A stretch of 64,000 nt of DNA, from assembly GCA_964565825.1 (NCBI GenBank), contig CAZMGK010000001.1:2052-66051 (forward strand), in the 5' to 3' direction. The translations under genes and the position numbers were made by a program. The notes below the pieces were generated by a model. It was not told where the DNA came from and did not search any database. It worked only from the letters and a program-made list of their open reading frames with translations. The DNA comes from an uncultured Candidatus Saccharibacteria bacterium. Lineage in GTDB: Bacteria > Patescibacteriota > Minisyncoccia > Phycocordibacterales > UBA9973. Shown here one piece after another: positions 1 to 58,127 of the stretch. How positions within the stretch are numbered: the stretch's first letter is position 1; each line of letters begins with the position of its first letter.

Positions 1-3000
1 GGTGGTGTCACTCGTAATATCATCAGTTGATGATGAACCACTGTCAGATCCTGCGTCCAGATTAGGCACACCCGGAGCTCCTGGTGCAGTTGTATCAACA
101 GTGACTGAGATACTCGGAGATGCGAGTGATTCATTTCCCGCGACATCGGTTGTGGTGATGGTGAGGGTATGTGCACCATCCGCGAGTGCTGATGAGGTAA
201 TACTGTAGAGGGCACCTGCACAGGTAAATGTTCCTACGTTCGTTGCTCCATCATAGAGTGTGATGAGTTCGCCTGTAGTACAAGAACCAGAGAGTGTTGG
301 TGTCGTATCCATAGTGATGTTGTCGGTCGTGATATTAGTATCAGATGCAGTATCCAAATCCGGTGCCGTTACTGGAGTACCAGGGAGTGTGGTGTCGATC
401 GTGACCGAAAGCGTGGTTCCGTCGGCACTCGCATTCCCAGCATTGTCTTCTTGATGAGCCAAGAAGACGTGGACACCATCGGCAAGCGCAGGAGATGCAG
501 TAAGTGTGACCGTACCTGCACTACAGTACCCTGTTGCATAGAGCGTGACACCCTCTTTGAGAACAACCAAATTGGTTCCCAAACACGATACCGTAAAGCT
601 CGGTGTTGTATCTTCAGTAATGTCATCAGTATTGGTTGTTCCTGTGTCTGATGCATTGGTCAGATCAGGCACACCAGGAGCTGATCCAGGAGCAGTGGTA
701 TCAATGGTGACAGAGAGTCCAGCTGATGTCGCTGAGACATTACCTGCGACATCGGTTTGACGTGCGGTCAGTGTGTACGCACCATCAGGCGTGAGTGCTG
801 TTGCGGTCAGTGTAATCGTTCCTCCACCTCCACAGACACCAGAGTCAAGCGTGATGGCACCGTTTCTGAGGTCAACGGTAGAACCAGCGACACAAGAAAT
901 CGTAAAGTCAGGGGTAGTGTCGGTGGTGATATTGTCGGTGGTTGATACTCCGGTACTGTCAGCAGTATCTGAACCTGCATCAAGATCAGGAGTAGAAGGT
1001 GCAGCATCTACTGTAGTGTCGATATCAATAACAACAAATCCAGAGAGTGGAGAGACATTTCCTGCTGGGTCTGTCTGTTTTGCAGTAATCGTGTATGTAC
1101 CATCTGGAGTGAGGGCTGTCGTAATAGTAATCGTTGAAGATGACCCAGCACAGACATCGGTGTAACCTGAAGCACTTCCATCTACCCAGAGTTCGACGGT
1201 AGATCCAGTCACACAAGAAATGGTGAAGGTTGGGGTGTCATCATTGGTTTCATTGTCGGTGGTGTTTCCTGTGTCAGAGGCGACATCAAGATCAGGAGTA
1301 CCTGGAGCAGCATCGGCTGTGGTATCGATGATGATGGCTTTGTTGGCGCCGAGGGATCCGGCAGCGCCTGGAGCTGCGAGTGTGAGTGTTGCATTGTTCG
1401 TCGCAACATCACGAATGGTTCCTCCGTTTAAGGCGAGAGAGTTTGTGGCGAAATAGTCGAGGTCACCACTTGCATCAGCTGCAACGACAGTGTAATTAAA
1501 GGTCAGTGTGTTTGTTCCAGTACCGGAACTGTAGGTTGCATCACGGTCAGTTACACCTGTTTCTAGAGTGAGGAGTGGAGAACCGGTGACGTTGACGACT
1601 TCAGAGAAGACGATTTGTATTGAAATGACCGCACCTGTGGTGTATTCCCCATTGGCAGTACTTGATGTCACACTCGTGACTGTTGGAGAGGTGGTGTCAA
1701 AGGTGTAGGTGTAGGTCGCTGAACTATCACTGTTACCTGATTGATCAGTTGCAGTGTACTCAAATGATCCAGATGAGCTGTTGTTGAACGTAACTGTACA
1801 GGTGAACTGTGTGTTACCGGTAGGAGTAAGTGCTGTACCTGAGGCGACACACGGTGATGTGTTGATGTTGCTTCCGGTGATGACAATATCGCCTGAAACC
1901 AATCCTGAGTTACTGTCGGTCACGGTGAAGACTGCCACGAGTGGGTCAGGACTATTGTAGGTACCGGTTGTTGGAGTGGGTACTCCAAGTGTTGGGTCGG
2001 TACTATCTATGTAAAAGTTTCCACTGTACTGAGTAGCACTGTTTCCAGCACGGTCGTCAACATCGACAGTCAGGGTTCCAGTAGCAGAGACGGTTCCACT
2101 ACAGAATATGGAGACTGATGCAGTGGGTAATGTTGCCACGGTTGGGAATGGATCATAACAGGTAAAGCTGTGAGTTGAGGTTCCTCCAAAGGTCACTGAG
2201 TCAATTCCATTGGCATCAGTGATAGTAAAGGTTGCATTGGTGATAGAGGCTGTTGAGAAGATGGTTGGAGTGGTTGGGGTAATGACTGGTACCACAGTTT
2301 CAATGATGTACGTTTGGGTGGCTTCTGCTCCAGGAATACTTCCTCCTGGGCCTCCACCATCTGGATCTCCTGAACCGTTGACGGTCAGTGTTCCACCAGG
2401 GGTAAGTATTCCATCATCGAGCGTACAGTCGGTGGTGGTTGGATTAGTTCCGACGGCAGGCACACAGGTAATAGCGGATGAGCCTCCTCCGTTGTAGACG
2501 GCTGTGACTGAGTCAATGTATCCAGGTGCGCCCATGAGGACATTGATCGTCGTGTCAGATATTGTTGTATTTGAAATGACCGTTGGTGCGGTGATGGTGA
2601 TGATTGGATAGAATTTGGCTGTCTGTTCACGGATGTTACCGGCTGTATCGTAGGCCCGGAGAATGACGGTATTGAGTGCAGAGGTTGATGCTCCAGTCAT
2701 CGCATACGGAGATGTTTGTGTCGCAAAGCCTCCACCGTTAACATTGAGTTCATAGTGATCAATCGCGATACCGTCGGTTGCTAAAAAGGTGATGGTTGGA
2801 TCAGTGAAATCAAGTGGTGTTGAAGTCAGAGGATCAATGGTGTAGACCGTGATGGTTGGAGCCAAACGGTCAATGATGTAGTTTGGAGAATTAAAGGTGA
2901 CTTGCTTCCCTACTTTGTCTGTTGTAGTGACAGAGATGACGTGGGTTTCTTCGGCATTGTTGGCAGTGGTGATATCGACTGTACAGGTAATAGTCGTATT

Positions 3001-6000
3001 GCCTGTGGTTGGGAGGACTGCTGGAGATGAACAATCAGGAGTCAGGACGCCGTCGATTGAGTCAGTGACTACTATGTATGTGTCAGCTTGGATACCTTGA
3101 CCGGTGGCATTGTCTGCAGTCGTGAAGGTAATAGTTTGAGGACTGGTAGTGGTTAGAAATGTTGCAGTGGTAAATGATCCTGTTGGGACTGTGTTGTCGA
3201 TGATAATAGTCAGTGCGCCACTATCTCCTGATTCATTTCCAGCGAGATCTACCTCACGGACCGTGAGGTTGTTGTGTGTCCCTTCAGACAGGGCTGATGT
3301 GGTACAAGACCAGGCACCAGCTCCGTCTGATGTTGTGGTACAGACAAGTGTTCCGTTATCGTAGACTTTGACTGTCTGTGTGGCACCGGCTCCCGTTCCA
3401 GAGAGTGTTGGTGTGGTGTCAGAAGTGAGATCATCAGTTGATGAGTATCCAGTGTCAGAACCTGCATCGAGGTTTGGGGTACCCGATGGAGCAGAAGGTG
3501 CTGTAGTATCGATGGTGACAGAAAGTGCACCGGATGCCACAGATACATTCCCGGCGACATCTGTTTGTTTCGCAGTGATACTGTAGGCAGCATCTGGAGT
3601 AAGTGCAGTTACGGTCAAGGTGACAGTACTTGCTGCACAGACACCGGTCACACCAGTAGCTACTCCACCGACGAAGAGTTCGACAGTAGATCCGGTGACA
3701 CACGAGAGATCAAAGGTTGGTGTACTATCATTGGTCACATCGTCGTTGGTGAATGTTCCATTGTCGGTTCCAGAGGTCATATCCGGTGCACCTGGAGCAG
3801 CGTCTGCTGTCGTGTCGATGATGATTGCTTTGTTGGCACCAAGAGATCCTGCAGCTCCAGGAGTTGGGAGAGTCAGGTCGGAGTCGATTGTTCCACCGTT
3901 TAAGGCCAGGGAACCTGTACCAGTGTAGTCGAGGTCGGAACTTGTCTCACCTGAGGCGACAGTGTATGTGAAGGTAAGTACTGTGGTACCAGTACCTGAA
4001 GTATAGTTGACGACTGCATCTGTTCCTCCTGTTTCCAGAGTCAGTTGTGGAGTACCGGTGACAGCGACTGGATTAGAGAAAGTAATTTGTATTGAAATGA
4101 CATCGCCTGCATTGTATGAGCCGTCGCCGGTTGATGAGGAGACGTCGGTGACGGTTGTATAGAGGAACCACCCAATAGCGGTACTACTCACGTCAATTGA
4201 GTTTGCTGGCAGAAGAGGAAGTGTGATACCAGAAGAACTATCAAGAGCAGTGTTGTCGGCGATAGAGAGATAATCTCCAGTGAAGGTTGATGCTCCAGTA
4301 AAGGTGATCGTCCGGACTGTCGGAGTATCAGCTGAGGTGATAGCAATGAGGTCATCGGCATCGAGACCATCAAGAACCAGTGAGTTAGCAATAGTGATAT
4401 TACCATTGTCAAAAACAAGTTGACTATTGGTACCATTGTTCGTTGATTCAACCTTAGAGAGTGTGTAGAAAGGAATGGTTGCTGTAGCATCGATGGTGAT
4501 TGCATTAGAGGTAATGGAGACCGTACCGTTGTTGTGTGTAAATGTACCTGCATTAGCAAATGTTGAACCAGAGACAGTGAGTGTCCCAGAGGTTGAAGTC
4601 ATTGCGCCTGAGGCACCAATTGAAAGTGATGGCGTAGACATACTCTGAGCCAATCCAGTGAATGCTCCATCGGTGACGGTCAGTGTATTTGCAACAACGA
4701 GACCACCTCCTAGTTGGAAGGTATCACTGTTACTAGCACTTGCATCATTGATGATGAGGTTGTAGTAGTCGGTGGCACCAAAGTCTTTGATGGTGTGAGT
4801 GGTGGCAGATCCGATTCCGTTACCGTAGTATTCCCAGGTTCCAGAGTTGACGTCGTTGGTGAGAGTGAGGGTGTTACTTCCTTGGAGGCGGACGGTACCG
4901 TCATTACTAAGTGTACCAGAGATAGTAGCATTAAAGCTTGAGAGATCAAGAGTTGAACCAGCATCTATGTCTACAATCGTACCGGTAATATTGAAGTCAT
5001 TGGTCACTACGGTCACCGTTGAATTATTTGTAATCGTAGGGCGGACAGTTCTTGCAACGGAACCAAAGTTCATGTCTTGGGCATCACCTCCGTTAAATGT
5101 TACGGTAAGTTCTGCAGTAAAAGTCATCGTTCCATCAATGATCGCATCTCCCCCAAAACTTGGAGAAAAATTCCCAAATGCTATCGTTCCTCCACTATTT
5201 ACTTGAAGATCTCCTGCATACGTCGATACTGCTCCAGGTGTGAAGGTAGCTCCAGTCATGACAATGAGTTCTTTTGTATCGTTGATGACCGTTGCACCAC
5301 CGGCATCTGGGTAAAGTGTGGTAAGGTCAGCATCTGCATTATTAGCTGTATTGAGTGTCGCAATAGTATGTGCACCACTTTCGAGGATCACTCTATCTTG
5401 GTAAATATCTGTAGTAATGTAGTTCGAAGAACCATTATGTCTAATGAGTGTTGCTCCATCTTCTGTTTCTCCGTCTATGTAGACAGTGACCACAGCAGAA
5501 GCAGTAGGGTTCACATATGACAGAGAGTATGCACCGGTACCACCTGAAGTGGTAGTACATGAGCTTGAGACTCCGTCAACGAGGAGACAGATGGATTTAC
5601 CGTTGGCGATTGGGGTGACTCCTTCGTCGGTGTAGACGCTTCCTGAGATGGTGGAGGCAGCAGCGTCGTAGATGGTGATGCGATGGTTACCAGATTGCGC
5701 AACAAAAAGACGACTGTTTGTAGAATCATACGCGAGATTTTTTGGAGTACTCATACGTGATTGGTTTGTAAGAGCACTAGTATTAGTGAAATTACTTTGC
5801 CCAAGGACATTGATAGCATTTTCTCCATCGGTGATAGTAGCCACATCGTACACAGTGACACGGTGGTTACCAGATTGGGCAACAAAAAGACGATTACCTG
5901 TTGAGTCATAGGCAAGACCTTGTGGACTGTTCATCCCAGCTTGAGTATCAGCCGAAGCAGAGTTTGTAAAATTAGTTTGACCAAGCACAAATGTTGCATT

Positions 6001-8055
6001 TTCTCCGTTAGTAATACCGGTGACATCATAGACTGTGACGCGATGATTGCCGTACTGCGAAACAAAGAGTCTGTTGCCTGTTGCGTCATAAGTAAGACCC
6101 TCTGGACCATTCATCCCAGATTGAGTGTTTCCGGCTCCAGTAGAAAAAAAACTTCCCTGACCAAGTACGAATGTTGCATTTTCTCCATCTGTAATAGCAG
6201 CAACGTCATATACTGTGACACGATGACTACCTGTTTGTCCGACAAAAAGACGATTACCTGTTGAGTCATAGGCAAGACCTGTTGGAGAATTCATTCCGCC
6301 TTGAGTATTAGCAGAGGCGGATGTCGTAAAGAGTGCTTGCCCAAGCACAAATGTTGCATTTTCTCCATCGGTGATAGTAGCCACATCGTACACAGTGACA
6401 CGGTGGTTACCAGATTGGGCAACAAAAAGACGATTACCTGTTGAGTCATAGGCAAGACCTTGTGGACTGTTCATCCCAGCTTGAGTATTTGCCGCTGTAT
6501 TAGACACAAAGTCAGTTTGCCCAAGAACATTATCAGGAACTCTATCAATGAGATTATCGCTCGCATCTAAGTTATACACAAATACTCGATGGTTAGCACT
6601 ATCTGAAACAAACAATCTATGATTAACACTATCTACTTCTTCGTCAACAGGAGTAGAAAAACCAAGTCTGTTCGCAGAATCATGTGACCCACTCTTTGTG
6701 TATGTTGGCACTGGCGCAGATAGATTTGTCCCATCGTACTGACCAAGTGCATCTACTGCATTTTCTCCGTCGGTGATAGTAGTCACATCATAGACAGTGA
6801 GACGACTATTACCATTACCTACTACAAAAAGACGACTATTACTGCTATCATAAGTTAGACCATATGGAGCATTCATCCCTGCTTGAGTGTTTGCCGCAGC
6901 AGTATTGGTGAAGTTACTTTGTCCAAGCACGAATGTTGCATTTTCTCCGTTAGTAATACCGGTGACATCATAGACTGTGACGCGATGATTGCCGTACTGC
7001 GAAACAAAGAGTCTGTTGCCTGTTGCGTCATAAGTAAGACCCTCTGGACCATTCATCCCAGATTGAGTGTTTCCGGCTCCAGTAGAAAAAAAACTTCCCT
7101 GACCAAGTACGAATGTTGCATTTTCTCCATCTGTAATAGCAGCAACGTCATATACTGTGACACGATGACTACCTGTTTGTCCGACAAAAAGACGATTACC
7201 TGTTGAGTCATAGGCAAGACCTGTTGGAGAATTCATTCCGCCTTGAGTATTAGCAGAGGCGGATGTCGTAAAGAGTGCTTGGCCGAGTACATTAATTGCT
7301 GGCTCTCCATCGGTAATTGCCGTGACATCATAGACGATGACGCGATTATTCAAAAAATCGGATACAAAGAGTCTATTATTTATAGAGTCATGCATAATAC
7401 CTCGTGGTGCGCTCATTCCTGATTGAGTGGTAGCAGATGCTGATGTCGTAAAGAGTGCTTGACCAAGGACGTTGATAGCCGGCTCTCCATCAGTGATAGC
7501 AGCGACATCGTAGACCGTGATACGATTGAGGTTTGCAACAAAAAGTCTATTACCTGTTGCGTCGTAAGCGAGACCATATGGAGCACTCATCCCTGCTTGA
7601 GTAACGGAACCACCATTGCTTATAAAGTCTGTTTGACCGAGCACGTTATCAGGAACTCTATCGATCAGGTTATTACTTCCATCTAAGTTATAGACGAGAA
7701 CACGGTTATTATTAACATCTGAAACAAACAATCGATGATTGACTGTATCCATAACTACTCCATACACCTGGTTGAATCCCAGTCTGTTCGGAGAGTCGTT
7801 TGACCCACTTTTTATTATATACCTTGGCACCGGCGCAGATAGATTTGTCCCATCGTACTGCCCCAACAGATCTATCGCATTCGCTCCATTGGAAATAGTT
7901 GCAAATGCAGGTGTTGGTAAAGCAAATGTAATGATGGTAAGTACAAGAATAAGATACGTTTTGTATGATTTCGTATGTGAAAAAATATTCTTTGTAAAAG
8001 ATAAAAAACTATCGACCAGTGTATTACCTTGTGTGTGTTTTGTGTATATAAACAT
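1..8055 (-). CDS. Giant secreted surface protein, partial (C-terminus lies beyond the window start). It has a Sec signal peptide, about 12 NHL-type beta-propeller repeats, then a long run of Ig-like domains (TDxAGNxS motif) and beta-helix-like repeat domains. More than 2680 aa lie in the window.
   Basis: My own reverse-complement translation from the ATG at 8053-8055 (preceded by an in-frame TAA) gives MFIYTKHTQGNTLVDSFLSFTKNIFSHTKSYKTYLILVLTIITFALPTPAFA, then repeated ...GNRLFV.Q.GNHRVTVYDV..ITDGE... (NHL) units. Translation near 3541-3660 gives VTALTPDAAYSITAKQTDVAGNVS in the same frame (low codon coordinate = 1 mod 3) as the start. None of the listed minus-strand ORFs occupies that frame, and all plus-strand ORFs in 1-8000 are short. 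The ORF track omits it because it runs off position 1. Confidence 0.8.
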   Translation of the reverse strand, partial: MFIYTKHTQGNTLVDSFLSFTKNIFSHTKSYKTYLILVLTIITFALPTPAFATISNGANAIDLLGQYDGTNLSAPVPRYIIKSGSNDSPNRLGFNQVYGVVMDTVNHRLFVSDVNNNRVLVYNLDGSNNLIDRVPDNVLGQTDFISNGGSVTQAGMSAPYGLAYDATGNRLFVANLNRITVYDVAAITDGEPAINVLGQALFTTSASATTQSGMSAPRGIMHDSINNRLFVSDFLNNRVIVYDVTAITDGEPAINVLGQALFTTSASANTQGGMNSPTGLAYDSTGNRLFVGQTGSHRVTVYDVAAITDGENATFVLGQGSFFSTGAGNTQSGMNGPEGLTYDATGNRLFVSQYGNHRVTVYDVTGITNGENATFVLGQSNFTNTAAANTQAGMNAPYGLTYDSSNSRLFVVGNGNSRLTVYDVTTITDGENAVDALGQYDGTNLSAPVPTYTKSGSHDSANRLGFSTPVDEEVDSVNHRLFVSDSANHRVFVYNLDASDNLIDRVPDNVLGQTDFVSNTAANTQAGMNSPQGLAYDSTGNRLFVAQSGNHRVTVYDVATITDGENATFVLGQALFTTSASANTQGGMNSPTGLAYDSTGNRLFVGQTGSHRVTVYDVAAITDGENATFVLGQGSFFSTGAGNTQSGMNGPEGLTYDATGNRLFVSQYGNHRVTVYDVTGITNGENATFVLGQTNFTNSASADTQAGMNSPQGLAYDSTGNRLFVAQSGNHRVTVYDVATITDGENAINVLGQSNFTNTSALTNQSRMSTPKNLAYDSTNSRLFVAQSGNHRITIYDAAASTISGSVYTDEGVTPIANGKSICLLVDGVSSSCTTTSGGTGAYSLSYVNPTASAVVTVYIDGETEDGATLIRHNGSSNYITTDIYQDRVILESGAHTIATLNTANNADADLTTLYPDAGGATVINDTKELIVMTGATFTPGAVSTYAGDLQVNSGGTIAFGNFSPSFGGDAIIDGTMTFTAELTVTFNGGDAQDMNFGSVARTVRPTITNNSTVTVVTNDFNITGTIVDIDAGSTLDLSSFNATISGTLSNDGTVRLQGSNTLTLTNDVNSGTWEYYGNGIGSATTHTIKDFGATDYYNLIINDASASNSDTFQLGGGLVVANTLTVTDGAFTGLAQSMSTPSLSIGASGAMTSTSGTLTVSGSTFANAGTFTHNNGTVSITSNAITIDATATIPFYTLSKVESTNNGTNSQLVFDNGNITIANSLVLDGLDADDLIAITSADTPTVRTITFTGASTFTGDYLSIADNTALDSSSGITLPLLPANSIDVSSTAIGWFLYTTVTDVSSSTGDGSYNAGDVISIQITFSNPVAVTGTPQLTLETGGTDAVVNYTSGTGTTVLTFTYTVASGETSSDLDYTGTGSLALNGGTIDSDLTLPTPGAAGSLGANKAIIIDTTADAAPGAPDMTSGTDNGTFTNDDVTNDSTPTFDLSCVTGSTVELFVGGVATGVTGVCAASTVTLTVTALTPDAAYSITAKQTDVAGNVSVASGALSVTIDTTAPSAPSGTPNLDAGSDTGYSSTDDLTSDTTPTLSGTGAGATQTVKVYDNGTLVCTTTSDGAGAWSCTTSALSEGTHNNLTVREVDLAGNESGDSGALTIIIDNTVPTGSFTTATFLTTTSPQTITFTTADNATGQGIQADTYIVVTDSIDGVLTPDCSSPAVLPTTGNTTITCTVDITTANNAEETHVISVTTTDKVGKQVTFNSPNYIIDRLAPTITVYTIDPLTSTPLDFTDPTITFLATDGIAIDHYELNVNGGGFATQTSPYAMTGASTSALNTVILRAYDTAGNIREQTAKFYPIITITAPTVISNTTISDTTINVLMGAPGYIDSVTAVYNGGGSSAITCVPAVGTNPTTTDCTLDDGILTPGGTLTVNGSGDPDGGGPGGSIPGAEATQTYIIETVVPVITPTTPTIFSTASITNATFTITDANGIDSVTFGGTSTHSFTCYDPFPTVATLPTASVSIFCSGTVSATGTLTVDVDDRAGNSATQYSGNFYIDSTDPTLGVPTPTTGTYNSPDPLVAVFTVTDSNSGLVSGDIVITGSNINTSPCVASGTALTPTGNTQFTCTVTFNNSSSGSFEYTATDQSGNSDSSATYTYTFDTTSPTVTSVTSSTANGEYTTGAVISIQIVFSEVVNVTGSPLLTLETGVTDRDATYSSGTGTNTLTFNYTVVAADASGDLDYFATNSLALNGGTIRDVATNNATLTLAAPGAAGSLGANKAIIIDTTADAAPGTPDLDVASDTGNTTDNETNDDTPTFTISCVTGSTVELWVDGSASGYTDVCAGSSSTITITTALTPDGTYTITAKQTDPAGNVSPLSGFVVIDIDTTVDAAPSTPDLDAGSDTADSTGVSTTDNITTDTTPDFTISCVAGSTVDLRNGAITLDSGVCGGGGTITLTATALTPDGAYTLTARQTDVAGNVSATSAGLSVTIDTTAPGSAPGVPDLTNASDTGTTNTDDITEDTTPSFTVSCLGTNLVVLKEGVTLYATGYCSAGTVTLTASPALADGVHVFLAHQEDNAGNASADGTTLSVTIDTTLPGTPVTAPDLDTASDTNITTDNITMDTTPTLSGSCTTGELITLYDGATNVGTFTCAGALYSITSSALADGAHTLTITTTDVAGNESLASPSISVTVDTTAPGAPGVPNLDAGSDSGSSSTDDITSDTT

Positions 8056-8107
8056 ACGTATATTTTATCATGGTACATGAGGTAAAATCTATTTCTGTCT
8101 AGTGTTT

Positions 8108-8930: not shown

Positions 8931-8979
8931 ATACATACACATTGTTTTTAAAAAAAGACCTGCTATACTTTATATATGG

Positions 8980-9038
8980 TTCCCGTTAGAAGTCAGCTAC
9001 TTCATATATCCACACAAGAAAAAAACAAACACGGGAAC
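8980..9038. other. Hairpin-prone element containing CCCGTTAGAAGTCAG, the reverse complement of CTGACTTCTAACGGG that recurs at 56865-56879 and within the leader modules. The stem GTTCCCG...CGGGAAC encloses about 45 nt.
   Basis: Direct string matches and complementarity read from the sequence. Confidence 0.4.
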
Positions 9039-9057: not shown

Positions 9058-9100
9058 CTAATTAAGGACGGAAGTCTCAAGACTTCCTACTTCTAACGGG
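9058..9100 (+). promoter_or_regulatory. Conserved 43-nt leader module, CTAATTAAGGAC-GGAAGTC-tcaa-GACTTCC-TACTTCTAACGGG, ending exactly at the ATG.
   Basis: A near-identical module sits upstream of gatC (56763-56804, minus strand) and a diverged copy upstream of the 46297 gene. The hairpin stem shows compensatory changes: GGAAGTC/GACTTCC here versus GGAAATC/GATTTCC in the other two copies. Confidence 0.6.
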
Positions 9101-9892
9101 ATGGAAACAGAAAAAAATAATCAAGAAGTTCATCACACAAATGAACACTCACCTATTACAAGTAACGGAGAGAAAAATTCATTATCAGTAGGTTCTGCAA
9201 TTATTATTGGAGCAGTAATCATAGCGCTCGCAGTTGTCGGATCAAAGAAATTTTCTAGCTCAAGCATGCGTGATTCATCTGAATCAGTTCTTTCAACCCT
9301 CGATATTAGTGAGAAAAAATTCAAAGCTTGTTACGAAGCAAAAACACCTGAAGCAAAAATCCGCGCTCATATGGCAAGCGCAGAAAAAGCAACCAAACAT
9401 ATTCCAGAAGATCAAGGACGTGGTACACCATACAGTATTGCAATCAACCAGAAGACTGGTATGAAAATAGAAATTGCTGGAGCGTACCCGACTGAAGCAG
9501 TCACCAGTATCATAGATAGTATGTTTGCGGGTACAGCAAAAAGTCAGACTGAAATTGACATTGATCCAGTTACCGGCGAAGACCACTATTTTGGTTCAAA
9601 AGATGCAGAAATTGTAATCATAGAATACTCTGATTTGGAATGTCCATACTGTTCACGTTTTCACACAACGATGCAAGATGTAGTAGAGTCGTATGGTGGA
9701 AAAGTAGCATGGGTCTACAGACACCTCCCTCTTGAGCAACTTCACCCTAATGCATTTGATAAAGCAATCTCTTCGGAATGTATCTATGACATAGGAGGAG
9801 ATGTAAAATTCTGGGAATACATTGATTTACTCTTTAAAAAAAATGAGCCAAAGAAACCAGTGTTTGACCCGATAACAGGAGAGACGAAATAG
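9101..9892 (+). CDS. Membrane-anchored thioredoxin-fold thiol:disulfide oxidoreductase (DsbA/Thioredoxin_4-like) with a CPYC active site. It appears to lack the usual C-terminal half of DsbA-type proteins.
   Basis: N-terminal TM helix (IIIGAVIIALAVVG). Motif DLECPYCSRFH followed by VAWVYRHLPL...HPNA. The ORF stops at 9892 and a terminator hairpin follows at 9931. Confidence 0.6.
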   Translation: METEKNNQEVHHTNEHSPITSNGEKNSLSVGSAIIIGAVIIALAVVGSKKFSSSSMRDSSESVLSTLDISEKKFKACYEAKTPEAKIRAHMASAEKATKHIPEDQGRGTPYSIAINQKTGMKIEIAGAYPTEAVTSIIDSMFAGTAKSQTEIDIDPVTGEDHYFGSKDAEIVIIEYSDLECPYCSRFHTTMQDVVESYGGKVAWVYRHLPLEQLHPNAFDKAISSECIYDIGGDVKFWEYIDLLFKKNEPKKPVFDPITGETK

Positions 9893-9930
9893 CAGGTTTA
9901 AGGTGAAAGGTTACAGGGAATAGAAAATAC

Positions 9931-9974
9931 AAAAGCGGAGCGCCCGAAGGGCGCTCCGCTTTTGTATTTGTATT
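9931..9974. terminator. Bidirectional rho-independent terminator (GCGGAGCGCCC-gaag-GGCGCTCCGC + TTTTGTATTTGTATT) between the convergent DsbA-like gene and rpoD.
   Basis: 11-bp GC stem, GAAG loop, T-rich tail. The reverse complement also gives a stem plus U-tract. Confidence 0.7.
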
Positions 9975-9995
9975 CTCTATTTACTATTTACTAAC

Positions 9996-11444
9996 TTAAT
10001 CAAAATAATGTTTAAGCCTTGCAATTTTTTCATTTGCACGAAGTTTTTCATGCACCTTTGCCTCAATCTGACGAATACGCTCACGTGTGACATTGAATTC
10101 AACACCAACCTCTTCGAGAGTATGCTGTACACCATCAACGAGTCCGTATCTCATTTCTAAAATCTTTCTTTCTTTTTCTGAGAGCTCTTGTAATGCTTCA
10201 TTGATCTGATCTTTCAACATGCGATGAGAACTTTCTTGATCGGGACGAAGGATTTTGTCATCTGCAATAAATTCTCCACGAGTAGACTTTTCGTCGTCGT
10301 CACCAATTGGCTGTTCAAGAGAGAGTGTATCTTGATTGATATTTTCAATTATATGAATCTTCTCAACCTCAACACCCATTTCTGTTGCAATTTCTTCTGG
10401 TAATGGATCACGTCCCAAATCTTGAGACAGGCGTCTGTACACTTGCTTATATTTTGAAATAGTTTCCACCATGTGTACTGGAATACGAATGGTCCGAGAC
10501 TGGTCAGCAAGAGCGCGAGTTATTGATTGACGAATCCACCATGTAGCGTAGGTACTAAATTTATACCCCTTAGTCCAATCAAATTTCTCAACGGCTTTAA
10601 AGAGTCCGATGTTCCCTTCTTGTATTAAATCAAGAAGTGTCAGATCAGCACTTCGTCCAACATATTTTTTTGCAATAGAAACAACGAGACGGAGGTTCGC
10701 GCGAGCCAAGAGTGTTCGAGCCTCTGTATCTCCAGCCTCGATCCGTTTTGCCAAATCACGTTCTTCGCTTGCATGAATAAGTGCATACTGTCCAATTTCT
10801 TTTAGATACATTTGAATAGAATCATATGACGAGGCGTCTTTACCAAGTTTGAAATCTTTCTTCTTTTCCTCTGGGTCCATATCAAGCAAATTTCCACCTT
10901 CCAAGATATCAATCCCGGCAAGCTGTAATTTACTATATAATTCTTCCAAAAAGACTAGATTATTTTCAATATTTGGAAATGACTTGAGTATCTCATCGTA
11001 GGTAATAAAATGACGTTTCTTACCTTTTTCAACAAGTGCATCCATGATGTCTACTTGGTCTTCTATTTTCTTGCTGTGTTTTGTGTTTAAAACAATTTTT
11101 TTCTCAGGAGCTAGATTTTTCTTGGCTGGTATTTTTTTAGTAGGTTTTTTAGCAACCACAGAACTAGCTTTTTTCGCCACACCTGTAACTCGAGATTTTT
11201 TGACAGGAGTCGGTTTCTTTTTTAGAGGGGTCGTTTTCATAGCTGCTTTTTTTACCACAGCCGAAGCCTTGTTCGAGGTTTTGTATTGAGATTTTTTGAC
11301 AGGAGTCGGTTTCTTTTTTAGAGGGGTCGTTTTCATAACTGCTTTTTTTGCAACAGCGGAAGCGACTCTTTTAATCACAGCCTTTGGTTGGGACTTTTTG
11401 ACAGGAGTCGGTTTCTTTTTTGTTTGTGTAATATTTTTTTTCAT
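9996..11444 (-). CDS. rpoD: RNA polymerase sigma-70 factor RpoD, with a lysine-rich tandemly repeated N-terminal extension.
   Basis: Sigma70 region 2 ([40 protein letters not shown]) and region 4 are present. The N-terminus repeats ...[17 protein letters not shown]...; the DNA shows about 96-bp repeats at roughly 11196/11291/11395. Confidence 0.92.
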
Positions 11445-22743: not shown

Positions 22744-22832
22744 TTTATTCGTTCTCTGTTAGCGCAGCTTCGACAGTTACTGCTTCTCCTAGTATAGCGA
22801 AGTTTTGAAAAGAGTCAAAGGAGGGTGGGGAT

Positions 22833-22950
22833 AAAATACGTGCTTACTATTTTAGAAAACACGAGTCAAGCTCTCATCTCAGTGTGCATATTAAAAAATA
22901 CAAATATGCACACTTCCGATAGTTTTTCTAAAATAGTAAGCACGTATTTT
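22833..22950. repeat. Nested inverted repeats: outer arms of about 28 nt (AAAATACGTGCTTACTATTTTAGAAAAC / GTTTTTCTAAAATAGTAAGCACGTATTTT) enclose an inner palindrome GTGTGCATATT...AATATGCACAC.
   Basis: Read directly. Lies in a roughly 380-bp insert between rpsP and the KH gene, which are normally adjacent. Confidence 0.5.
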
Positions 22951-23078
22951 ATCATGGTGAAAGAAAGGAAAAATTACGACAGTCTTCATAAAACCTCGTG
23001 GTGCTATTTTATTGAGAGAAGGAGTAAAGAGAAAAACACAAGTCTAGGAACTCGAGCAAATTCAACTCTTGTTTGAAC

Positions 23079-30164: not shown

Positions 30165-31013
30165 TTATTTTTTTGGATATTCTTGAGTAAAGGGATTATA
30201 TCGAGAAATAACCTCAAATCGCACAGGTGTTGTTTCAAATACTTTTTGCCAAACAATAAAGATTTGTTTTTTCTCTCTTGGGTTGAGTTTAGGAATAACG
30301 GTCTTCCCTACTTGTACCACATTTCCTTCTGCATCATACGCAAGTACATAGACGTCTATTTTGGAAATAGAAAATACTTGAGATGCATTACGAAGCATTG
30401 CAGAAAATCGAGGTTTGATATCATCGGTATTAAATAATTGTTCTGAAACTTCAATAACCATGTCATCATACCGGGTATCTGTTTTATGCCAAGACACAGC
30501 TTCTTGTAATTCAAATGTTGTATAGGTCGGGATGGTGTTGCCTACTGGAATCTGCTGCTCGAACACAACCATGCCTTTATTGGGTTCGATAAAAGTACTT
30601 CCGGATTTTTCAACAATCAGTACTCTGTTTTGATCATATAATTTAAATTTATACGCTACTTCTTTTACTCCAGCTTGAAAATTTTGATTTTCAATATATG
30701 CAACTGCATTATAAAAACCAGGAACTATTTCGTAAGACCTTTGCCATTTGATGACTGGATCTTGAGTAAACTCTTTACACTGTAAAGAACATTCTCCTCC
30801 ACAATCTACTCCGAATTCTGTGCCGTTTTTTTTAGTATCAAAACAAGTAGGTTTTTTATTTACAAGAGGAATTAAAATAACCACAAAAACACCCAACAGT
30901 ATAATTCCCATTATAGAAAGTATGTTAAATTGTCTTTGTGATGCCCAGCTCATGTAGAGTACTATACCACAAGTCAGACCAGAACTCACACAGTACTTTT
31001 TCGGAGCGCGCAT
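30165..31013 (-). CDS. Hypothetical membrane-anchored protein with a Cys-rich segment; the start is uncertain (an alternative start lies at the internal MSWASQ...).
   Basis: TM helix IMGIILLGVFVVILIPLV; no recognisable domain. Confidence 0.45.
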   Translation of the reverse strand: MRAPKKYCVSSGLTCGIVLYMSWASQRQFNILSIMGIILLGVFVVILIPLVNKKPTCFDTKKNGTEFGVDCGGECSLQCKEFTQDPVIKWQRSYEIVPGFYNAVAYIENQNFQAGVKEVAYKFKLYDQNRVLIVEKSGSTFIEPNKGMVVFEQQIPVGNTIPTYTTFELQEAVSWHKTDTRYDDMVIEVSEQLFNTDDIKPRFSAMLRNASQVFSISKIDVYVLAYDAEGNVVQVGKTVIPKLNPREKKQIFIVWQKVFETTPVRFEVISRYNPFTQEYPKK

Positions 31014-31137: not shown

Positions 31138-31719
31138 ATGTTAGAATACAACGAAATCAGAGAAAGAAAAGTCATCATTTACGAGGATGAACCATACGAA
31201 GTTATCACAAGTCATGTCTTTCGCAAACAACAACGAAAACCAGTCAATGCAACCAAACTCAAAAATCTCCTGACCGGAAAAGTTTTGGAAATATCTTTTC
31301 ATGTCTCGGACAAAGTAGACGAAGCTGATCTCGAAAAGAGCGAAGTGAAATACCTCTACAATGCAAAAGGAGAATACTGGTTCTGTGATGCAAAAGACCC
31401 GGCGAACAGATTTGTTGTCCCAGCAGATAAGATCGGCAACCCACAAGTCAAATTTCTCAAAGAAGGCATGACAGCGACAATGAAAATTTTTGAAAATGAA
31501 AATGAAGATCGCATCATTGTCGCTGTCGAGATCCCGATCAAAATGGAATTCATCATCAAAGAAGCGGCGCCTGCGGTACGCGGAAATACAGCGACGAACG
31601 CAACCAAGTCTGTCATCCTTGAAAACGATACAGAAATATTTGTTCCAATGTTTCTCGAAGAAGGAGAGCGAATCCGCATCAATACAGAAAATGGTGAATA
31701 CGTAGAGCGGGCGAACTAG
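31138..31719 (+). CDS. efp: Elongation factor P
   Basis: 193 aa, KLKNLLTGKV...; three-domain EF-P architecture. Confidence 0.93.
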   Translation: MLEYNEIRERKVIIYEDEPYEVITSHVFRKQQRKPVNATKLKNLLTGKVLEISFHVSDKVDEADLEKSEVKYLYNAKGEYWFCDAKDPANRFVVPADKIGNPQVKFLKEGMTATMKIFENENEDRIIVAVEIPIKMEFIIKEAAPAVRGNTATNATKSVILENDTEIFVPMFLEEGERIRINTENGEYVERAN

Positions 31720-31762
31720 GTATCTAGTGAGTAGTTAATAGAAAATGCAGAGTACAAAATAC

Positions 31763-31800
31763 AGGAGCGTGCCCTTCGGGCACGCTCCTGTATTTGTATT
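31763..31800 (+). terminator. efp terminator: GGAGCGTGCCC-ttcg-GGCACGCTCC + TGTATTTGTATT.
   Basis: GC stem, UUCG loop, T-rich tail. Near-identical to the terminator at 9931-9974. Confidence 0.7.
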
Positions 31801-31845
31801 GTTCACTAAAATCTAAAATCTTAAATCTGACTGCAAAGACAAAAA

Positions 31846-49506: not shown

Positions 49507-49584
49507 AGGTATATAATTTTATTTTTTATACTATACCACAAGAAATAAAATAATGCTAGGCCTGTTTCGATACGTACAGAGCCG

Positions 49585-49640
49585 TACAAAAAAGCGTAAA
49601 CACCACACAGTATCTGTGTGGTGTTTACGCTTTTTTGTAC
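49585..49640. terminator. Long perfect inverted repeat (about 26-nt arms, GTACAAAAAAGCGTAAACACCACACAG-tatc-CTGTGTGGTGTTTACGCTTTTTTGTAC) downstream of smc.
   Basis: Read directly; A6/T6 runs within the arms give terminator potential on either strand. Confidence 0.55.
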
Positions 49641-49660
49641 GCTATTTTTTATTTGTTTTT

Positions 49661-51928: not shown

Positions 51929-52008
51929 ATAAACAGTATATCATACTGTAGCGTATAGGTAATAGCCTGCCTGCCGGCAAAGGCAGGGTTTTAGGGAGCA
52001 GAGACATA

Positions 52009-52060
52009 CAAGAGAGGCACATCCTTTGGATGTGCCTCTCTTGTATGTGAATTTGTATTT
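52009..52060. terminator. Hairpin CAAGAGAGGCACATCC-tttg-GATGTGCCTCTCTTG + TATGTGAATTTGTATTTT between smc and rnc.
   Basis: Member of the TTGTAT-tail hairpin family. Confidence 0.5.
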
Positions 52061-52095
52061 TCTATTCCCTACAATCTGTGATCTATTCCCTATTA

Positions 52096-52794
52096 TTAGT
52101 CCATCCACTTTTTTTGTTCAATCGCCAACTGTGCTGCATTTTGTTCAGCCTCTTGTTTAGATTTACCTTTACCAGAAGCGATAAGGTCAGACCCAAAGAA
52201 AATTCCGACACTAAACTTTTTATCATGATCTGGTCCTGATTCGTTGAGAACTTTATATGATGGAGTGACGTGATAGACCTCTTGAGCTTTTTCTTGCACT
52301 AGAGATTTTGCATCGCGCCAGAGCTTGTGTTTGATGATCTGTTCGATCTTAGGAAAGAGATATTTTTCAATAAAAAGCTTGCATGGTTCGTAGCCTTGAT
52401 CGAGGTACAATGCACCGATAAATGATTCAAACGTATTTGCGAGGATGTGCATTCGGGCTTTACCGATATCTTTACTTTCACCTTTTGAGAGAAGGAGATA
52501 TTCGTTCATACCGAGATCTTGTGCAACACCACCGATCACTTGTGTATTCACCAGTGATGACCGAAATGCCGTCAATTCACCTTCTGGAGAATTTGGAAAA
52601 TTCATGTATAAGTGAGTGGTAACAATGAGTTCAAGAACTGCATCACCCAAAAATTCGAGTCGTTCATTGTGTCCATGTTTGAGATTACTATTCTCATTCA
52701 AGTAAGAACGATGTACAAATGCTTGGGTCAGTAAGTTTTTATCTTTAAAATGGATATTCAGTTTTTCTTCAAATGGGGTGAAATTAGCTTGCAT
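52096..52794 (-). CDS. rnc: Ribonuclease III
   Basis: NERLEFLGDAVLELIV catalytic signature plus a C-terminal dsRBD. Confidence 0.92.
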   Translation of the reverse strand: MQANFTPFEEKLNIHFKDKNLLTQAFVHRSYLNENSNLKHGHNERLEFLGDAVLELIVTTHLYMNFPNSPEGELTAFRSSLVNTQVIGGVAQDLGMNEYLLLSKGESKDIGKARMHILANTFESFIGALYLDQGYEPCKLFIEKYLFPKIEQIIKHKLWRDAKSLVQEKAQEVYHVTPSYKVLNESGPDHDKKFSVGIFFGSDLIASGKGKSKQEAEQNAAQLAIEQKKWMD

Positions 52795-53701: not shown

Positions 53702-53762
53702 ATTCTTATTTTAGTAAAAGAACTAACTTATAATAAATAAATACACCCAAGAATTGGTGTAT

Positions 53763-53969
53763 TTACTTTGCTTTACTTTGACGTTTTTCAACTTTCTTCA
53801 CAACATCAAGCACTTTTTTGCCACGATACAGACCTGTTTTAAGGTCAGCGTGATGACGCAAGTGAGTTGCTCCAGTTTTCGCATCAGTGGTTACGTTTAT
53901 AGCCGTAAGTGCGTGATGTGAACGTCTATTTGCGGTGTGTGACCGCGTATGTCTCATTCGGATTACCAT
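53763..53969 (-). CDS. rpmF: 50S ribosomal protein L32
   Basis: RHTRSHTANRRSHHALTA...THLRHH...YRGKKV matches the L32 consensus (RSRRDMRRSHDALT...HLRHH...YRGRKV). Confidence 0.85.
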   Translation of the reverse strand: MVIRMRHTRSHTANRRSHHALTAINVTTDAKTGATHLRHHADLKTGLYRGKKVLDVVKKVEKRQSKAK

Positions 53970-54025
53970 AGAATATATATACCATATCTAGTTTAAATTT
54001 TCAAGTTTTTAGTGGATAGTGAATA

Positions 54026-54066
54026 CAAGGAGCGGATGCCGTAGGCACTCGCTCCTTGTATTATTG
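54026..54066 (-). terminator. Hairpin GGAGCG-gatgccgtaggcact-CGCTCC + TTGTATTATTG after the 54106 gene.
   Basis: TTGTAT-tail family member. Confidence 0.45.
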
Positions 54067-54105
54067 CATTTCTCTATAATCTGAAATCTGTCAACTGTAA
54101 TCTGC

Positions 54106-57980: not shown

Positions 57981-58040
57981 TTGTAAAATAATTTTGTTTG
58001 TACTTACTGTACACTAAAATGGGAAAAAGTCCAGACATAC

Positions 58041-58127
58041 AAAGAGGCGCACCCTTCGGGTGCGCCTCTTTGTATATCCTCCCTCTCCTGGACAGGAGAG
58101 GGTTGGGGTGAGGTTGTTTATTTTTTT
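58041..58127 (-). terminator. Two tandem hairpins after the 58118 gene: AGAGGCGCACCC-ttcg-GGTGCGCCTCT + TTGTATAT, and CCCTCTCCTG-gac-AGGAGAGGG + TTGGGGTGAGGTTGTTTATTTTTTT.
   Basis: The first belongs to the UUCG/TTGTAT family. The second shares about 45 nt with an insertion inside murD (63437-63480). Confidence 0.6.

Follow-up and report, generated by a model that had tools for sequence, protein, structure and literature searches.

Enterobacteria and pseudomonads have REP and BIME elements, extragenic palindromes in 3' UTRs whose stem base carries a short conserved motif and which can affect termination and mRNA stability. Copies of REPs number from tens to hundreds; their palindromes are imperfect, their stems are highly conserved, and they are linked to RAYT transposases. 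As far as its title goes, a 2026 bioRxiv preprint reportedly presents REPs as 3'UTR regulators. In Neisseria and Haemophilus, inverted pairs of DNA uptake sequences form terminators; the uptake words, 9-12 nt in length, are over-represented hundreds-fold and frequently lie within genes. Orthologous terminators in B. cereus evolve through compensated AU-GC switches (PMC5381666). On both sides of its GC-rich stem, the hut terminator has sites for the protein HutP, which recognises A and G in XAG motifs set at 7-nt intervals (U498/U505/U512; PMC2425495). TAACTGA heptamer repeats of Beggiatoaceae, cyanobacteria and Bacteroidetes have a fixed unit and are located mostly just upstream of start codons (PMC4679880). 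Our literature search retrieved no paper on intrinsic terminators in the uncultivated CPR lineage considered here.

The window, meaning the whole stretch of 64 kb that was analysed, comes from one Paceibacteria (CPR) genome; rpoC is unsplit and the related loci are from Paceibacteria, which led us to reject the cyanobacterial origin that the heptamer repeats had first suggested. It contains at least six hairpins with ATACAA...TTGTAT arms, labelled H1-H6 and starting at 9925, 31757, 49583, 52004, 54024 and 58034. These hairpins are probably ordinary intrinsic terminators that use a local sequence dialect and were inherited in place, with at most a few exchanges, rather than mobile or recently propagated elements. 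H1 (9925..9969; no strand is assigned to any of the six) is a 21-bp perfect palindrome, AAATACAAAAGCGGAGCGCCC-GAA-GGGCGCTCCGCTTTTGTATTT (dG -46.3 and -43.7), between a convergent trx-like gene (9101-9892, +) and rpoD (9996-11444, -). On the rpoD-sense strand its loop reads C(UUCG)G. H2 (31757..31795), an 18-bp perfect palindrome, AAATACAGGAGCGTGCCC-TTC-GGGCACGCTCCTGTATTT (dG -38.6), lies 38 nt past the efp stop, and one bulge lengthens the palindrome to 31751-31801. H3 (49583..49641), a 28-bp perfect palindrome, CGTACAAAAAAGCGTAAACACCACACAG-TAT-CTGTGTGGTGTTTACGCTTTTTTGTACG (dG -46.9), is found 20 nt past the smc stop and has the frame GTACAAAAAA/TTTTTTGTAC around an unrelated core, without a heptamer array. 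H4 (52004..52048), a 21-bp perfect palindrome, ACATACAAGAGAGGCACATCC-TTT-GGATGTGCCTCTCTTGTATGT (dG -37.6), is located between rnc (52096-52794, -) and smc. The palindrome of H5 (54024..54060), TACAAGGAGCGGATGCC-GTA-GGCACTCGCTCCTTGTA (dG -27.8), has two non-Watson-Crick positions, reads C(UACG)G on the sense strand and separates a 316-aa ORF (54106-55056, -) from rpmF. H6 (58034..58078), GACATACAAAGAGGCGCACCC-TTC-GGGTGCGCCTCTTTGTATATC (dG -48.8), follows a zf_Tbcl_2 gene (58118-58798, -) and also has no heptamer array. The rpmF terminator (53739..53764, -), AAATACACC-AATTCTTG-GGTGTATTT, is a possible small seventh member; its stem is weak and overlaps the rpmF stop codon, and it was left out of the statistics. 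An earlier sequence-only reading had named five hairpins, all of which are present where it placed them and fold far better than shuffles. Its list lacked H3, the possible seventh member and the arrays adjoining four of the hairpins.

All six hairpins are intergenic, 20-80 nt past stop codons, and stand at operon ends, including those of rpoB-rpoC-dnaG-rpoD, efp, smc, rnc and nusB. No hairpin of this type was found inside the tightly packed operons (rpoB-rpoC-dnaG-rpoD; 37951-43679). H1 has a convergent setting, as does H2 jointly with a second hairpin at 31845, and the genes on either side of H3, H4, H5 and H6 are co-oriented. A -10-like TATAnT is usually found 3' of the hairpin, 6-8 nt ahead of the next ATG. 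The independent assemblies L001, L088 and L089 match the window and reproduce the hairpins. Contigs of this organism in Logan are broken at other repeats of the window. Proteins from the ends of the window led only to short Logan contigs identical to it, or to nothing.

Predicted folding energies range from -27.8 to -48.8 kcal/mol (z -6.8 to -11.7 against shuffles), with 9-12 GC pairs per stem and uninterrupted Watson-Crick pairing over 18-28 bp in palindromes of the form (A)ATACAA...TTGTAT(T). Judged from sequence, anatomy and position support well the proposal that the hairpins are terminators. TTGTAT, previously described as a tail, does not stand free but pairs with ATACAA; the two are the 3' and 5' arms of a longer perfect palindrome. 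A search for TACAAR-N14-44-YTTGTA returned 9 matches against 1.29 expected, and six of the nine are the family hairpins. The palindromes include the A/T arms, so that an A-tract mirrors the U-tract and either strand yields a hairpin with a U-tract after it. Perfect DNA palindromes with an A-rich mirror arm could therefore act in both directions. Reading the printed sequences, U occupies 5-8 of the 10 nt 3' of each GC core. H1 and H3 have good U-tracts, and those of H2, H4, H5 and H6 are broken by G or A (UGUAUUUG, UCUUGUAUGU); such interrupted tracts would be weak by E. coli standards. GTATTTGTATT is matched exactly at two positions, 9964 and 31790, and at 52049 with a single mismatch. At the third site (58034-78), said to have the tail doubled, TTTGTATAT is followed by CCTCC without a doubled TGTATT. 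The shared stem was recovered, as GGAGCGYGCCCTTCGGG with up to 3 mismatches matches only 9943-9959, 31764-31788 and 58044-58060 (0.02 expected), with cores that are loosely alike. The stems are 97.5% Watson-Crick in a hairpin search that tolerated at most one mismatch, and B. cereus terminators reach ~96% (PMC5381666). That search tolerance and the B. cereus figure temper perfect palindromy as proof of a process at the DNA level. Rfam gave no match at gathering level, and a permissive pass returned weak terminator-like matches only, at the hairpins.

Degenerate (NAG-N4)n arrays fill the spacer from stop codon to hairpin at H1, H2, H4 and H5. Upstream of H1 in the trx sense (9893..9934, +), the units are CAGGTTT AAGGTGA AAGGTTA CAGGGAA TAGAAAA TACAAAA (lag-7 self-match 0.62). 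In the rpoD sense (9958..9993, -) they are TAGTAAA TAGTAAA TAGAGAA TACAAA TACAAAA, with TRF period 7 at 9977-9993; read on the + strand, this array is what had been taken as the tail TTTTGTATTTGTATT. The array running from the efp stop codon into H2 (31717..31765, +) reads TAGGTATC TAGTGAG TAGTTAA TAGAAAA TGCAGAG TACAAAA TACAGG (lag-7 0.57). An inverted array on the other side of H2 (31787..31829, -) reads CAGATTT AAGATTT TAGATTT TAGTGAA and then CAATACAAATACAGG, with period 7 at 31806-31828. From the rnc stop codon to H4 (52049..52098, -), the order is TAATAA TAGGGAA TAGATCA CAGATTG TAGGGAA TAGAAAA TACAAAT TCAC. The sense array 5' of H5 (54054..54104, -) consists of CAGATTA CAGTTGA CAGATTT CAGATTA TAGAGAA ATGCAAT AATACAAGG, and its inverted counterpart on the other side (53989..54030, +) of TAGTTTA AATTTTC AAGTTTT TAGTGGA TAGTGAA TACAAGG (lag-7 0.52). 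The latter overlaps the rpmF promoter region on the opposite strand.

Self-match at lag 7 rises to 0.48-0.62 adjoining H1, H2, H4 and H5 only, over a background of 0.30. Four successive AG-N5 units occur 8 times against 1.17 expected, with seven of the eight at family hairpins, and three YAG-N4 units followed by TAS occur 5 times against 0.03. In five of the seven arrays TACAA is in register with the units. The stems of these four hairpins are adjoined by 4-6 NAG units at period 7, in which A and G are conserved; N4 differs between arrays, and the units within a single array are nearly identical. Similar arrays are found across Paceibacteria, where TAG repeated four times at period 7 has 53 matches in 3.0 Mb of sequence (both strands) versus 0-2 at the other periods among 4-12. 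Some arrays in Paceibacteria have no hairpin, and some lie immediately 5' of a start codon. Many have a CTAG core, which places TAG on both strands. Distant genomes, L076 among them, also have TAGGGAA-TAG units in their arrays.

The ATACA/TGTAT frame was compared across 80 related loci. It is carried by 5 of 17 strong hairpins in this genome versus 4 of 172 in the related loci (p = 3e-4), an enrichment given as 17-fold, and by none of six in the near relative L002. The usual intergenic hairpin in the related loci is a long perfect A-tract/T-tract palindrome. A T-run is followed by GT in 84 of 312 tails from other genomes and in 12 of 26 from the window, with a background for GTA and GTT together of 5-7%. 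Other genomes favor GTT over GTA (57 vs 8), and the window has 4 vs 8. The TnGTA frame is a local variant of the clade-wide TnGT(T) terminator tail.

Orthologous spacers in relatives give insights into the age of individual sites, although these conservation tests rest on few sequences per site. The rpoD-trx spacer of L091 contains AAATACAAAAAGCGGAGCGCCC-ATG-GGCGCTCCGCTTTTT, with a core 100% identical to that of H1 in flanking DNA that is 75.5% identical, and with TACAAAA on the rpoD side only. At the rnc terminator of L084-86, GAATACAAAAC...GTTTTGTATTC retains the ATACAAA frame around an unrelated core. H1 and the rnc terminator are thus old orthologues rather than recent copies, because the H1 core with one TACAAAA arm predates the L091 split and the rnc frame predates the L084 split. 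The core of H6 differs from the one common to L084 and L087 at the orthologous site and is therefore derived in the lineage of the window. The efp terminators of L002 and L003 have cores unrelated to that of H2, and the neighboring hairpin at 31845 is kept in both with a compensated G-C to A-T change. The efp terminators of L004 and L005 are one compensated pair apart. In L083, the nearest relative for the rnc-nusB locus, the spacers corresponding to H4 and H5 are short and contain no hairpin. The whole spacer is missing there and a clean empty site was not seen. We read this absence as a deletion, and an insertion in the lineage of the window could also fit.

The sequence-only reading had proposed a propagated terminator element, and a cassette of this kind is possible but doubtful. 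It would consist of the array, ATACAA, a GC palindrome and TTGTAT, propagated or kept in concert between intergenic sites, so that the members would be paralogues. The cassette could be copied by gene conversion, by template switching between existing terminators or by REP/MITE-like insertion. What survives of the proposal is the frame enrichment together with two local similarities. An exact 19-mer, AGGGAATAGAAAATACAAA, is shared by the flanks of H1 (+; 9915-9933) and H4 (-; 52052-52070, in the rnc array), with 0.05 expected even when 3 mismatches are allowed. It is part of a 46-nt stretch of 74% similarity that begins at each stop codon, but it may partly be common array vocabulary, given the TAGGGAA-TAG units of distant genomes. 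By hand alignment the arms of H4 and H6 are identical at 19 of 22 positions, with two compensated transitions; their arm score is 16, and none of 3,096 cross-genome comparisons reaches 15. H2 and H5 have in common the flank word ATAGA(G)AAATGCA and a GGAGCG stem. The derived core of H6 and the hairpin-free spacers of L083 also fit copying. Arm comparisons that include the frame are partly circular, as the family was defined through the frame, and the inner 13 nt of the cores were compared instead. Core scores do not exceed 8 of 13, a value reached by two pairs, H2/H5 and H4/H6 (null fraction 0.01 each), and the core of H3 is unrelated to the others. Calling the members near-identical was hence an overstatement, as they share the frame and the inner 13 nt stand out for these two pairs only. 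The 13-bp GC stem of the H1 core was found without the frame in four unrelated metagenome contexts; the metagenome scan returned no further Paceibacteria copies of it. Core resemblance is weak evidence of copying because the same stem occurs in unrelated contigs and can arise independently. The ages of H1 and of the rnc frame also speak against propagation, as do the terminators held by orthologous spacers of relatives. No flanking direct repeats or target-site duplications are visible at the hairpins, there are no separate terminal inverted repeats, and a Pfam scan of 29 window ORFs detected neither a transposase nor a RAYT domain. The hairpins resemble REP/BIME elements as 3' UTR palindromes with a short conserved motif at the stem foot. 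They are unlike them in having six copies in 64 kb, divergent cores and individual sites that are orthologous across species.

Two further explanations assign the modules other roles. The arrays might be binding sites of an oligomeric RNA-binding protein that modulates read-through at operon boundaries, following the logic of HutP and TRAP and with the ATACAA/TTGTAT arms as part of the switch. We consider such regulated terminators improbable. The analogy draws on the period-7 NAG triplets directly 5' of GC-rich stems, on the conserved A and G beside a variable N4, and on the dominance of period 7 for TAG in the clade. The hut terminator, though, belongs to a 5' leader, and its RNA carries another XAG site beyond the stem on the 3' side. 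The modules here come after genes, lack a second same-strand NAG site 3' of the stem and have there an inverted array that reads CTN. Domains of HutP and TRAP (TrpBP) were not found among the window ORFs scanned, H3 and H6 lack an array, and the arrays without hairpins or just ahead of start codons also count against such a switch. Near-identical units within an array are also as expected from simple slippage. The second explanation, a DNA-level element unrelated to transcription, be it a cruciform or recombination site, an uptake-signal pair or an assembly or chance artefact, is highly improbable. Perfect palindromes of 18-28 bp exceed what an RNA terminator needs, and the contig breaks at other window repeats would suit an artefact, yet the degree of Watson-Crick pairing is comparable to that in B. 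cereus. The hairpins are placed strictly past stop codons at operon ends, and independent assemblies reproduce them. As with uptake sequences, a genome-specific short word is inverted and flanks or forms terminator stems. The word AATACAAA has 20 matches in the window against 6.6 expected, only a 3-fold excess, and unlike uptake signals 15 of the 20 are away from family hairpins and arrays, most of these in what looks like ordinary coding sequence.

The favored explanation is that ordinary terminators were each inherited in place. The hairpins would be Rho-independent terminators of a Paceibacteria chromosome, with a GC-rich stem, a stable tri- or tetraloop and a U-rich tract. Their shared dialect may have three layers, the first being the clade-wide habit of ending the T-tract in G-T (TnGT, mirrored as ACAn), and the second the local variant TnGTA/TACAn. 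Four of the six members have TACAAA(A) as the last, in-register unit of the (NAG-N4)n array. A third layer could then arise as this last unit is mirrored onto the other arm during palindrome extension, presumably by template switching. The GC core would turn over through compensated substitutions or replacement while the site itself stays, and a few members at most may have exchanged sequence with one another. Some exchange between terminators is plausible because the frame is enriched, the 19-mer is common to H1 and H4, and the H4/H6 arms agree so closely. Independent evolution does not explain the 19-mer, and the H4/H6 likeness and the 17-fold enrichment are likewise left unexplained. For H3-H6, which are between co-oriented genes, the need for a symmetric terminator is not obvious. 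The hairpins match intrinsic terminators of the bidirectional type in the GC stem, the UNCG-type or triloop cap, the U-rich 3' tract with its A-rich 5' mirror, and the placement just past stop codons and at operon ends. The compensated pair changes at orthologous sites are also like those of B. cereus. They depart from intrinsic terminators in their unusually long, perfect stems (A/U arms included), in the G that systematically breaks the U-tract (TnGT clade-wide, TnGTA here), in the symmetric palindromes also between co-oriented genes, and in the growth of four members from heptamer arrays.

As terminators the hairpins are ordinary, and their value is practical, as a first picture of operon ends in an uncultivated CPR lineage. 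Long perfect palindromes, the TnGT-type tail and adjoining arrays could help to predict operons and terminators more accurately in Patescibacteria MAGs. The hairpins also provide a small, clean example of how a terminator "family" may form without a mobile element, as sites stay stable, cores turn over, and palindromes grow via mirroring, with copying perhaps an occasional addition. Follow-up would be most worthwhile for the clade-wide (TAG-N4)n arrays. Like TAACTGA repeats, they are short (2-6 or more units), intergenic and often near gene boundaries, with a 7-nt stop-triplet unit giving stops in three frames. Unlike TAACTGA repeats, only (N)AG is fixed, N4 varies, CTAG cores are frequent and several arrays adjoin terminators. 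A three-frame stop wall was rejected as the sole reason for the window arrays, since many units are CAG, AAG or TAC and frame-2 positions of the H4 array are not stops; it is possible for TAG-pure arrays in other genomes. A more speculative and rather unlikely proposal is that Paceibacteria punctuate gene boundaries with a composite signal, in which arrays of 7-nt units with a (C/T)TAG or NAG core, often on both strands, are in many cases joined, in register, to the palindrome of a symmetric terminator. Such a signal would function as a six-frame stop wall or as a track for an oligomeric RNA-binding protein, with the TTGTAT family as a local, degenerate form. As a stop wall, arrays could compel ribosomes to terminate and reinitiate, in a clade where many genes are apparently leaderless and poor in Shine-Dalgarno sequences. 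As a binding track, they could let an oligomeric protein tune read-through of the adjacent terminator in a HutP-like manner. A composite of array and terminator may not have been described before.

The TTGTAT arm was also considered as a general -35 box of downstream promoters and rejected, as promoters in the window use TTGACA or TTGAAA and the TTGTAT of the hairpins is found ~26 nt further upstream. In L083 and L084, a TTGTAT stands at the -35 position for rpmF.

All five hairpins picked out by the sequence-only reading are present in the window, and we recognize six family members (H1, 9925-9969; H2, 31757-31795; H3, 49583-49641; H4, 52004-52048; H5, 54024-54060; H6, 58034-58078), all sharing a frame of (A)ATACAA (5') and TTGTAT(T) (3'). 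The TTGTAT sequence described as a free tail exists, but as the 3' arm of a longer perfect palindrome. The pattern TACAAR-N14-44-YTTGTA matches nine times in the window against 1.29 expected, and six matches are strong hairpins. Folding energies of H1-H6 lie between -28 and -49 kcal/mol and beat shuffled sequences by 7-12 standard deviations. The small rpmF terminator at 53739-53764, AAATACACC...GGTGTATTT, is a possible seventh member. A census of gene 3' ends in the window recovered 13 strong hairpins, located in spacers 20-80 nt past stop codons and never within tightly packed operons. They serve ~16 gene ends because three sit between convergent genes and serve both. Six of the 13 belong to the family, and the rest are of the AACAAAA.../...TTTTGTT or plain A/T-tract type. 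H1 lies between a convergent trx-like gene and rpoD, H2 lies downstream of efp and faces a second hairpin (31845-31872) serving the convergent gene, and H3, H4, H5 and H6 are placed between co-oriented genes. Intrinsic terminators at operon ends are well supported by this anatomy and context, from which we infer termination activity itself.

The common frame holds up and is over-represented in this genome: 5 of 17 strong hairpins of the 64-kb window have it, versus 4 of 172 from 80 further Paceibacteria loci (Fisher p = 3e-4) and none of six in L002, a relative's locus. The observation of a near-identical family was nevertheless overstated, as the cores are only loosely alike. The proposed stem motif, allowing up to 3 mismatches, matches H1, H2 and H6 only in the window (0.02 expected); GTATTTGTATT occurs as an exact copy at H1 and H2, and the doubled tail reported for H6 is absent. 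Arms of H4 and H6, frame included, align with a score of 16, while none of 3,096 cross-genome comparisons reached 15, a contrast that is partly circular because the family is defined by its frame. Aligned by hand, these arms are identical at 19 of 22 positions; the differences include two transitions, each matched by a compensating change in the opposite arm. Switches of this kind are the most frequent in terminators (PMC5381666). When the comparison is confined to the inner 13 nt, H2/H5 and H4/H6 are the only pairs to rise above the rest (score 8 and null fraction 0.01 for each; two such pairs against 0.145 expected) and the H3 core is unrelated to the others, so the family is loose.

Aligning members from stop codon through tail revealed a degenerate tandem heptamer array 5' of H1 and H2 (both sides each), H4, and H5 (both sides), with none at H3 and H6. 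The arrays read TAGGGAA TAGATCA CAGATTG TAGGGAA TAGAAAA TACAAAT at H4, CAGATTA CAGTTGA CAGATTT CAGATTA TAGAGAA at H5, TAGTAAA TAGTAAA TAGAGAA TACAAA TACAAAA on the rpoD side of H1, and TAGTGAG TAGTTAA TAGAAAA TGCAGAG TACAAAA TACAGG at H2. Their lag-7 self-match is 0.48-0.62 versus 0.30 elsewhere. AG-N5 repeated four times matches eight times (1.17 expected), seven of them at these hairpins, and three YAG-N4 units followed by TAS match five times (0.03 expected). TACAAA(A) forms the final unit and is in register in five of seven arrays. The TTTTGTATTTGTATT noted earlier at H1 is there, but simply corresponds, reverse-complemented, to the final two units of the array on the opposite side.

The window is a bacterial chromosome segment of 39% GC with core genes (rpoB, unsplit rpoC, dnaG, rpoD, efp, ftsW, a UvrD/PD-(D/E)XK helicase, ligA, short smc, rnc, a nusB-NUDIX fusion, gatCA and mur genes). 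An ORF of at least 2,688 aa (1-8064, minus strand) runs off the left end; its repetitive sequence has 50% GC, against 39% elsewhere, and strong GC skew, and it probably encodes a giant surface protein. A full-length match to bacterial RNase P RNA class A (32547-32938, minus strand; model positions 1-367) is sub-threshold at 54 bits versus a gathering score of 100 (E = 6e-14). It probably represents a divergent rnpB in this CPR genome, in which case the overlapping ORF 32549-33028 (plus strand) would not be a gene. The nearest genomes are uncultivated Patescibacteria of Paceibacteria/Nomurabacteria type. They provided the loci L002 and L090 (one contig, CAZVHB010000001.1, assembly GCA_964626965.1; EF-P 97%, RpoD 92%), L091 (GCA_013558375.1; RpoD 90%), L083 (NusB 86%), L003 and L084-86 (contigs CAZEPT0100000xx, assembly GCA_964514225.1; EF-P 90%, NusB 79%), and L087 and L092 (one JGI contig; NusB 77%). 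DNA identity of these relatives to the window is only about 73-78%.

Judged from few sequences per orthologous site, the sites are stable, their cores change, frames are kept or lengthened, and deletion sometimes removes a hairpin. Mobile elements do not leave such a pattern, and the proposed propagated element is mostly unsupported. In the rpoD-trx spacer of L091, the H1 site reads AAATACAAAAAGCGGAGCGCCC-ATG-GGCGCTCCGCTTTTT, with core and A/T tracts identical to H1 in flanking DNA of 75.5% identity. There, TACAAAA stands on the rpoD side only, opposite CCGCTTTTTAGTCTC; relative to L091, the window is ~8 bases longer on the trx side (GAAAATAC), which makes the 21-bp palindrome complete. H1 is thus old and inherited, and its second TACAAA/TTGTAT arm probably a later mirror extension. 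The hairpin at this site is decayed in L090, and L092 has a different one. At the H4 site, L084-86 have, downstream of rnc, a similar TAG/TAA-rich array and then AAGAATACAAAACAGGACTGC-CTTC-GCAGTCCTGTTTTGTATTCTT, with the same frame as H4 but an unrelated core; L087 has a AACAAAAAAC frame. The H5 site holds a plain AAAAAGCGGGGG hairpin in L084. L083, the closest relative available at the rnc-nusB locus, has no hairpin at the H4 site (32-nt spacer) or the H5 site; its spacers at 2286-2326 and 4203-4236 are 32-40 nt long and contain a promoter only. Either these terminators are dispensable, or rnc-smc and the upstream gene with rpmF are co-transcribed there. At the H6 site, L084 and L087 have in common a CCGCTCA core and ACATA...TATGT outer bases, and H6 keeps the outer bases around a different core resembling that of H4. 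Hairpins framed by AAGAAAAA with unrelated cores occupy the H2 site in L002 and L003, both of which retain the hairpin at 31845 with one compensated change.

Tails with a T-run ending in G-T are common across the clade (84 of 312 in other genomes, 12 of 26 in the window; background for GTA+GTT 5-7%). The following base gives 57 GTT versus 8 GTA in other genomes, and 8 GTA versus 4 GTT in the window, which makes TTGTA a local dialect of the TnGT tail. TACAAAA would then be an array unit (TAN-NNNN) overlapping the mirror of that tail (ACAAAA). In 3.0 Mb of Paceibacteria sequence, counted on both strands, TAG repeated four times matches 53 times at period 7 versus 0-2 at each other period from 4 to 12; TAA (21 matches) and AAT (89 matches) repeated four times also peak at period 7. 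TAG-rich arrays with at least four units number 32 (for example L036 7964-8040, L060 3124-3260, L044 1753, L053 1433-1530, L076 10126 and L078 176-330), many with a CTAG core and hence TAG on both strands. Two arrays, in L036 and L060, open with the stop codon of the gene itself and lead into an A-tract hairpin; L060 has inverted arrays on either side of it, exactly the arrangement of H1. Still other arrays are found immediately 5' of start codons or lack a hairpin. A literature search found no paper on period-7 TAG arrays of Paceibacteria. The nearest precedents are intergenic heptamer repeats of TAACTGA (PMC4679880) and the recognition of XAG by HutP at a 7-nt period beside a terminator stem (PMC2425495). 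These arrays at gene boundaries, often fused to terminators, most merit further work.

A HutP-like switch at the hairpins would fit the 5' NAG arrays. However, the same strand has no NAG site 3' of the stem, the window ORFs scanned include no HutP or TRAP gene, and arrays occur without hairpins too. Occasional gene conversion or template switching between terminators is plausible but rather unlikely. An exact 19-mer, AGGGAATAGAAAATACAAA, is common to the flanks of H1 (plus strand) and H4 (minus strand), sits in a 46-nt stretch of 74% similarity beginning at each stop codon, and is absent from the 87 loci compared; H2 and H5 have a flank word and the GGAGCG stem in common, and the H4/H6 arm similarity stands, with the H6 core derived. 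Yet TAGGGAA-TAG units also appear in arrays of distant genomes (L076). In a metagenome scan, the 13-bp H1 stem turned up in four contigs, all of them lacking the TACAA frame and any rpoD or trx neighbour. Three seem to come from unrelated organisms, and the fourth, L093 (55% GC), bears a NAG-N4 array of its own; identical GC stems therefore arise independently. In L093 (1640-1726) the stem stands in unrelated context, preceded by TAGTTTT CAGTTTG TAGTTTC TAGTAGT.

Perfect palindromes might also stem purely from DNA-level quasipalindrome template switching (PMC7202029), an attractive mechanism for the arm mirroring at H1. We put this no more strongly because the stems are 97.5% Watson-Crick, close to the ~96% of ordinary terminators. 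Besides the HutP-like switch and such a DNA-level origin, the ALTERNATIVES weighed included REP/RAYT or MITE elements, uptake-signal pairs and a promoter -35 box. Conserved cores, target duplications and a transposase domain (29 ORFs scanned) are missing for the first. AATACAAA is only 3-fold enriched, with 15 of 20 matches away from family hairpins and arrays, and TTGTAT occupies the rpmF -35 position in L083 and L084, not in the window. The feature belongs to an ordinary class and shows a local sequence dialect, in a clade that has received little study.

After the hairpins and at many window genes, a TATAnT box usually lies 6-8 nt before the next ATG (for example 33862-33904, 51928-51950, 53970-53995, 43679-43700), some with TTGACA or TTGAAA 17 nt further upstream. 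Many genes therefore look leaderless, and this spacing suggests widespread leaderless mRNAs. A conserved leader element ending at start codons, the small hairpin GGAAATCTTTGATTTCC followed by (T)ACTTCTAACGGG-ATG, precedes the trx-like gene, a PBP gene and gatC (9064-9103 and 46265-46299, plus strand; 56751-56794, minus strand; also 8961-8999 / 56861-56899). It may serve non-leaderless genes as a common 5'-UTR or translation-initiation element.

Several other repeats occur in the window. A GC-rich near-palindrome, CCCTGCCTTTGCCGGCAGGCAGG, lies at 51962-51986 between H4 and the smc promoter. The 20-bp perfect palindrome TTCGGAGCGCGCATATTTTT-CTCA-AAAAATATGCGCGCTCCGAA (31000-31043) overlaps the start codon of ORF 30165-31013 (minus strand) in the divergent region facing efp. 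It has a GGAGCGCGC stem like that of the family, without the ATACAA frame, and a Logan contig begins inside it. Tandem 108-nt units, two per locus, occur at 41098-41313 and 44189-44404 (3 kb apart), with a partial copy at 63910-63946. Identity is 98-100% inside a locus and about 60% from one locus to the other. Each unit contains the hairpin ATTGGTGTGGGGGTAAACCCCGACACCAAT, and the repeats are placed in or close to the 5' ends of called ORFs; a Logan contig from this organism stops inside one of them. The GC-rich element CCTCACCCC(A/C)(A/G)ACCC(C)TCTCC..GGAGAGGG adjoins H6 (58079-58126) and recurs inside the murD ORF (63435-63482) with 83% identity. Related copies in L091 (15703-15729, 16092-16120) flank a DUF559 (Vsr-like) gene in inverted orientation, an arrangement suggestive of a small mobile cassette. 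The intergenic region between a KhpA-like gene and rpsP contains a perfect inverted repeat of 30 nt, its copies separated by a 64-nt spacer (22830-22859 / 22924-22953).
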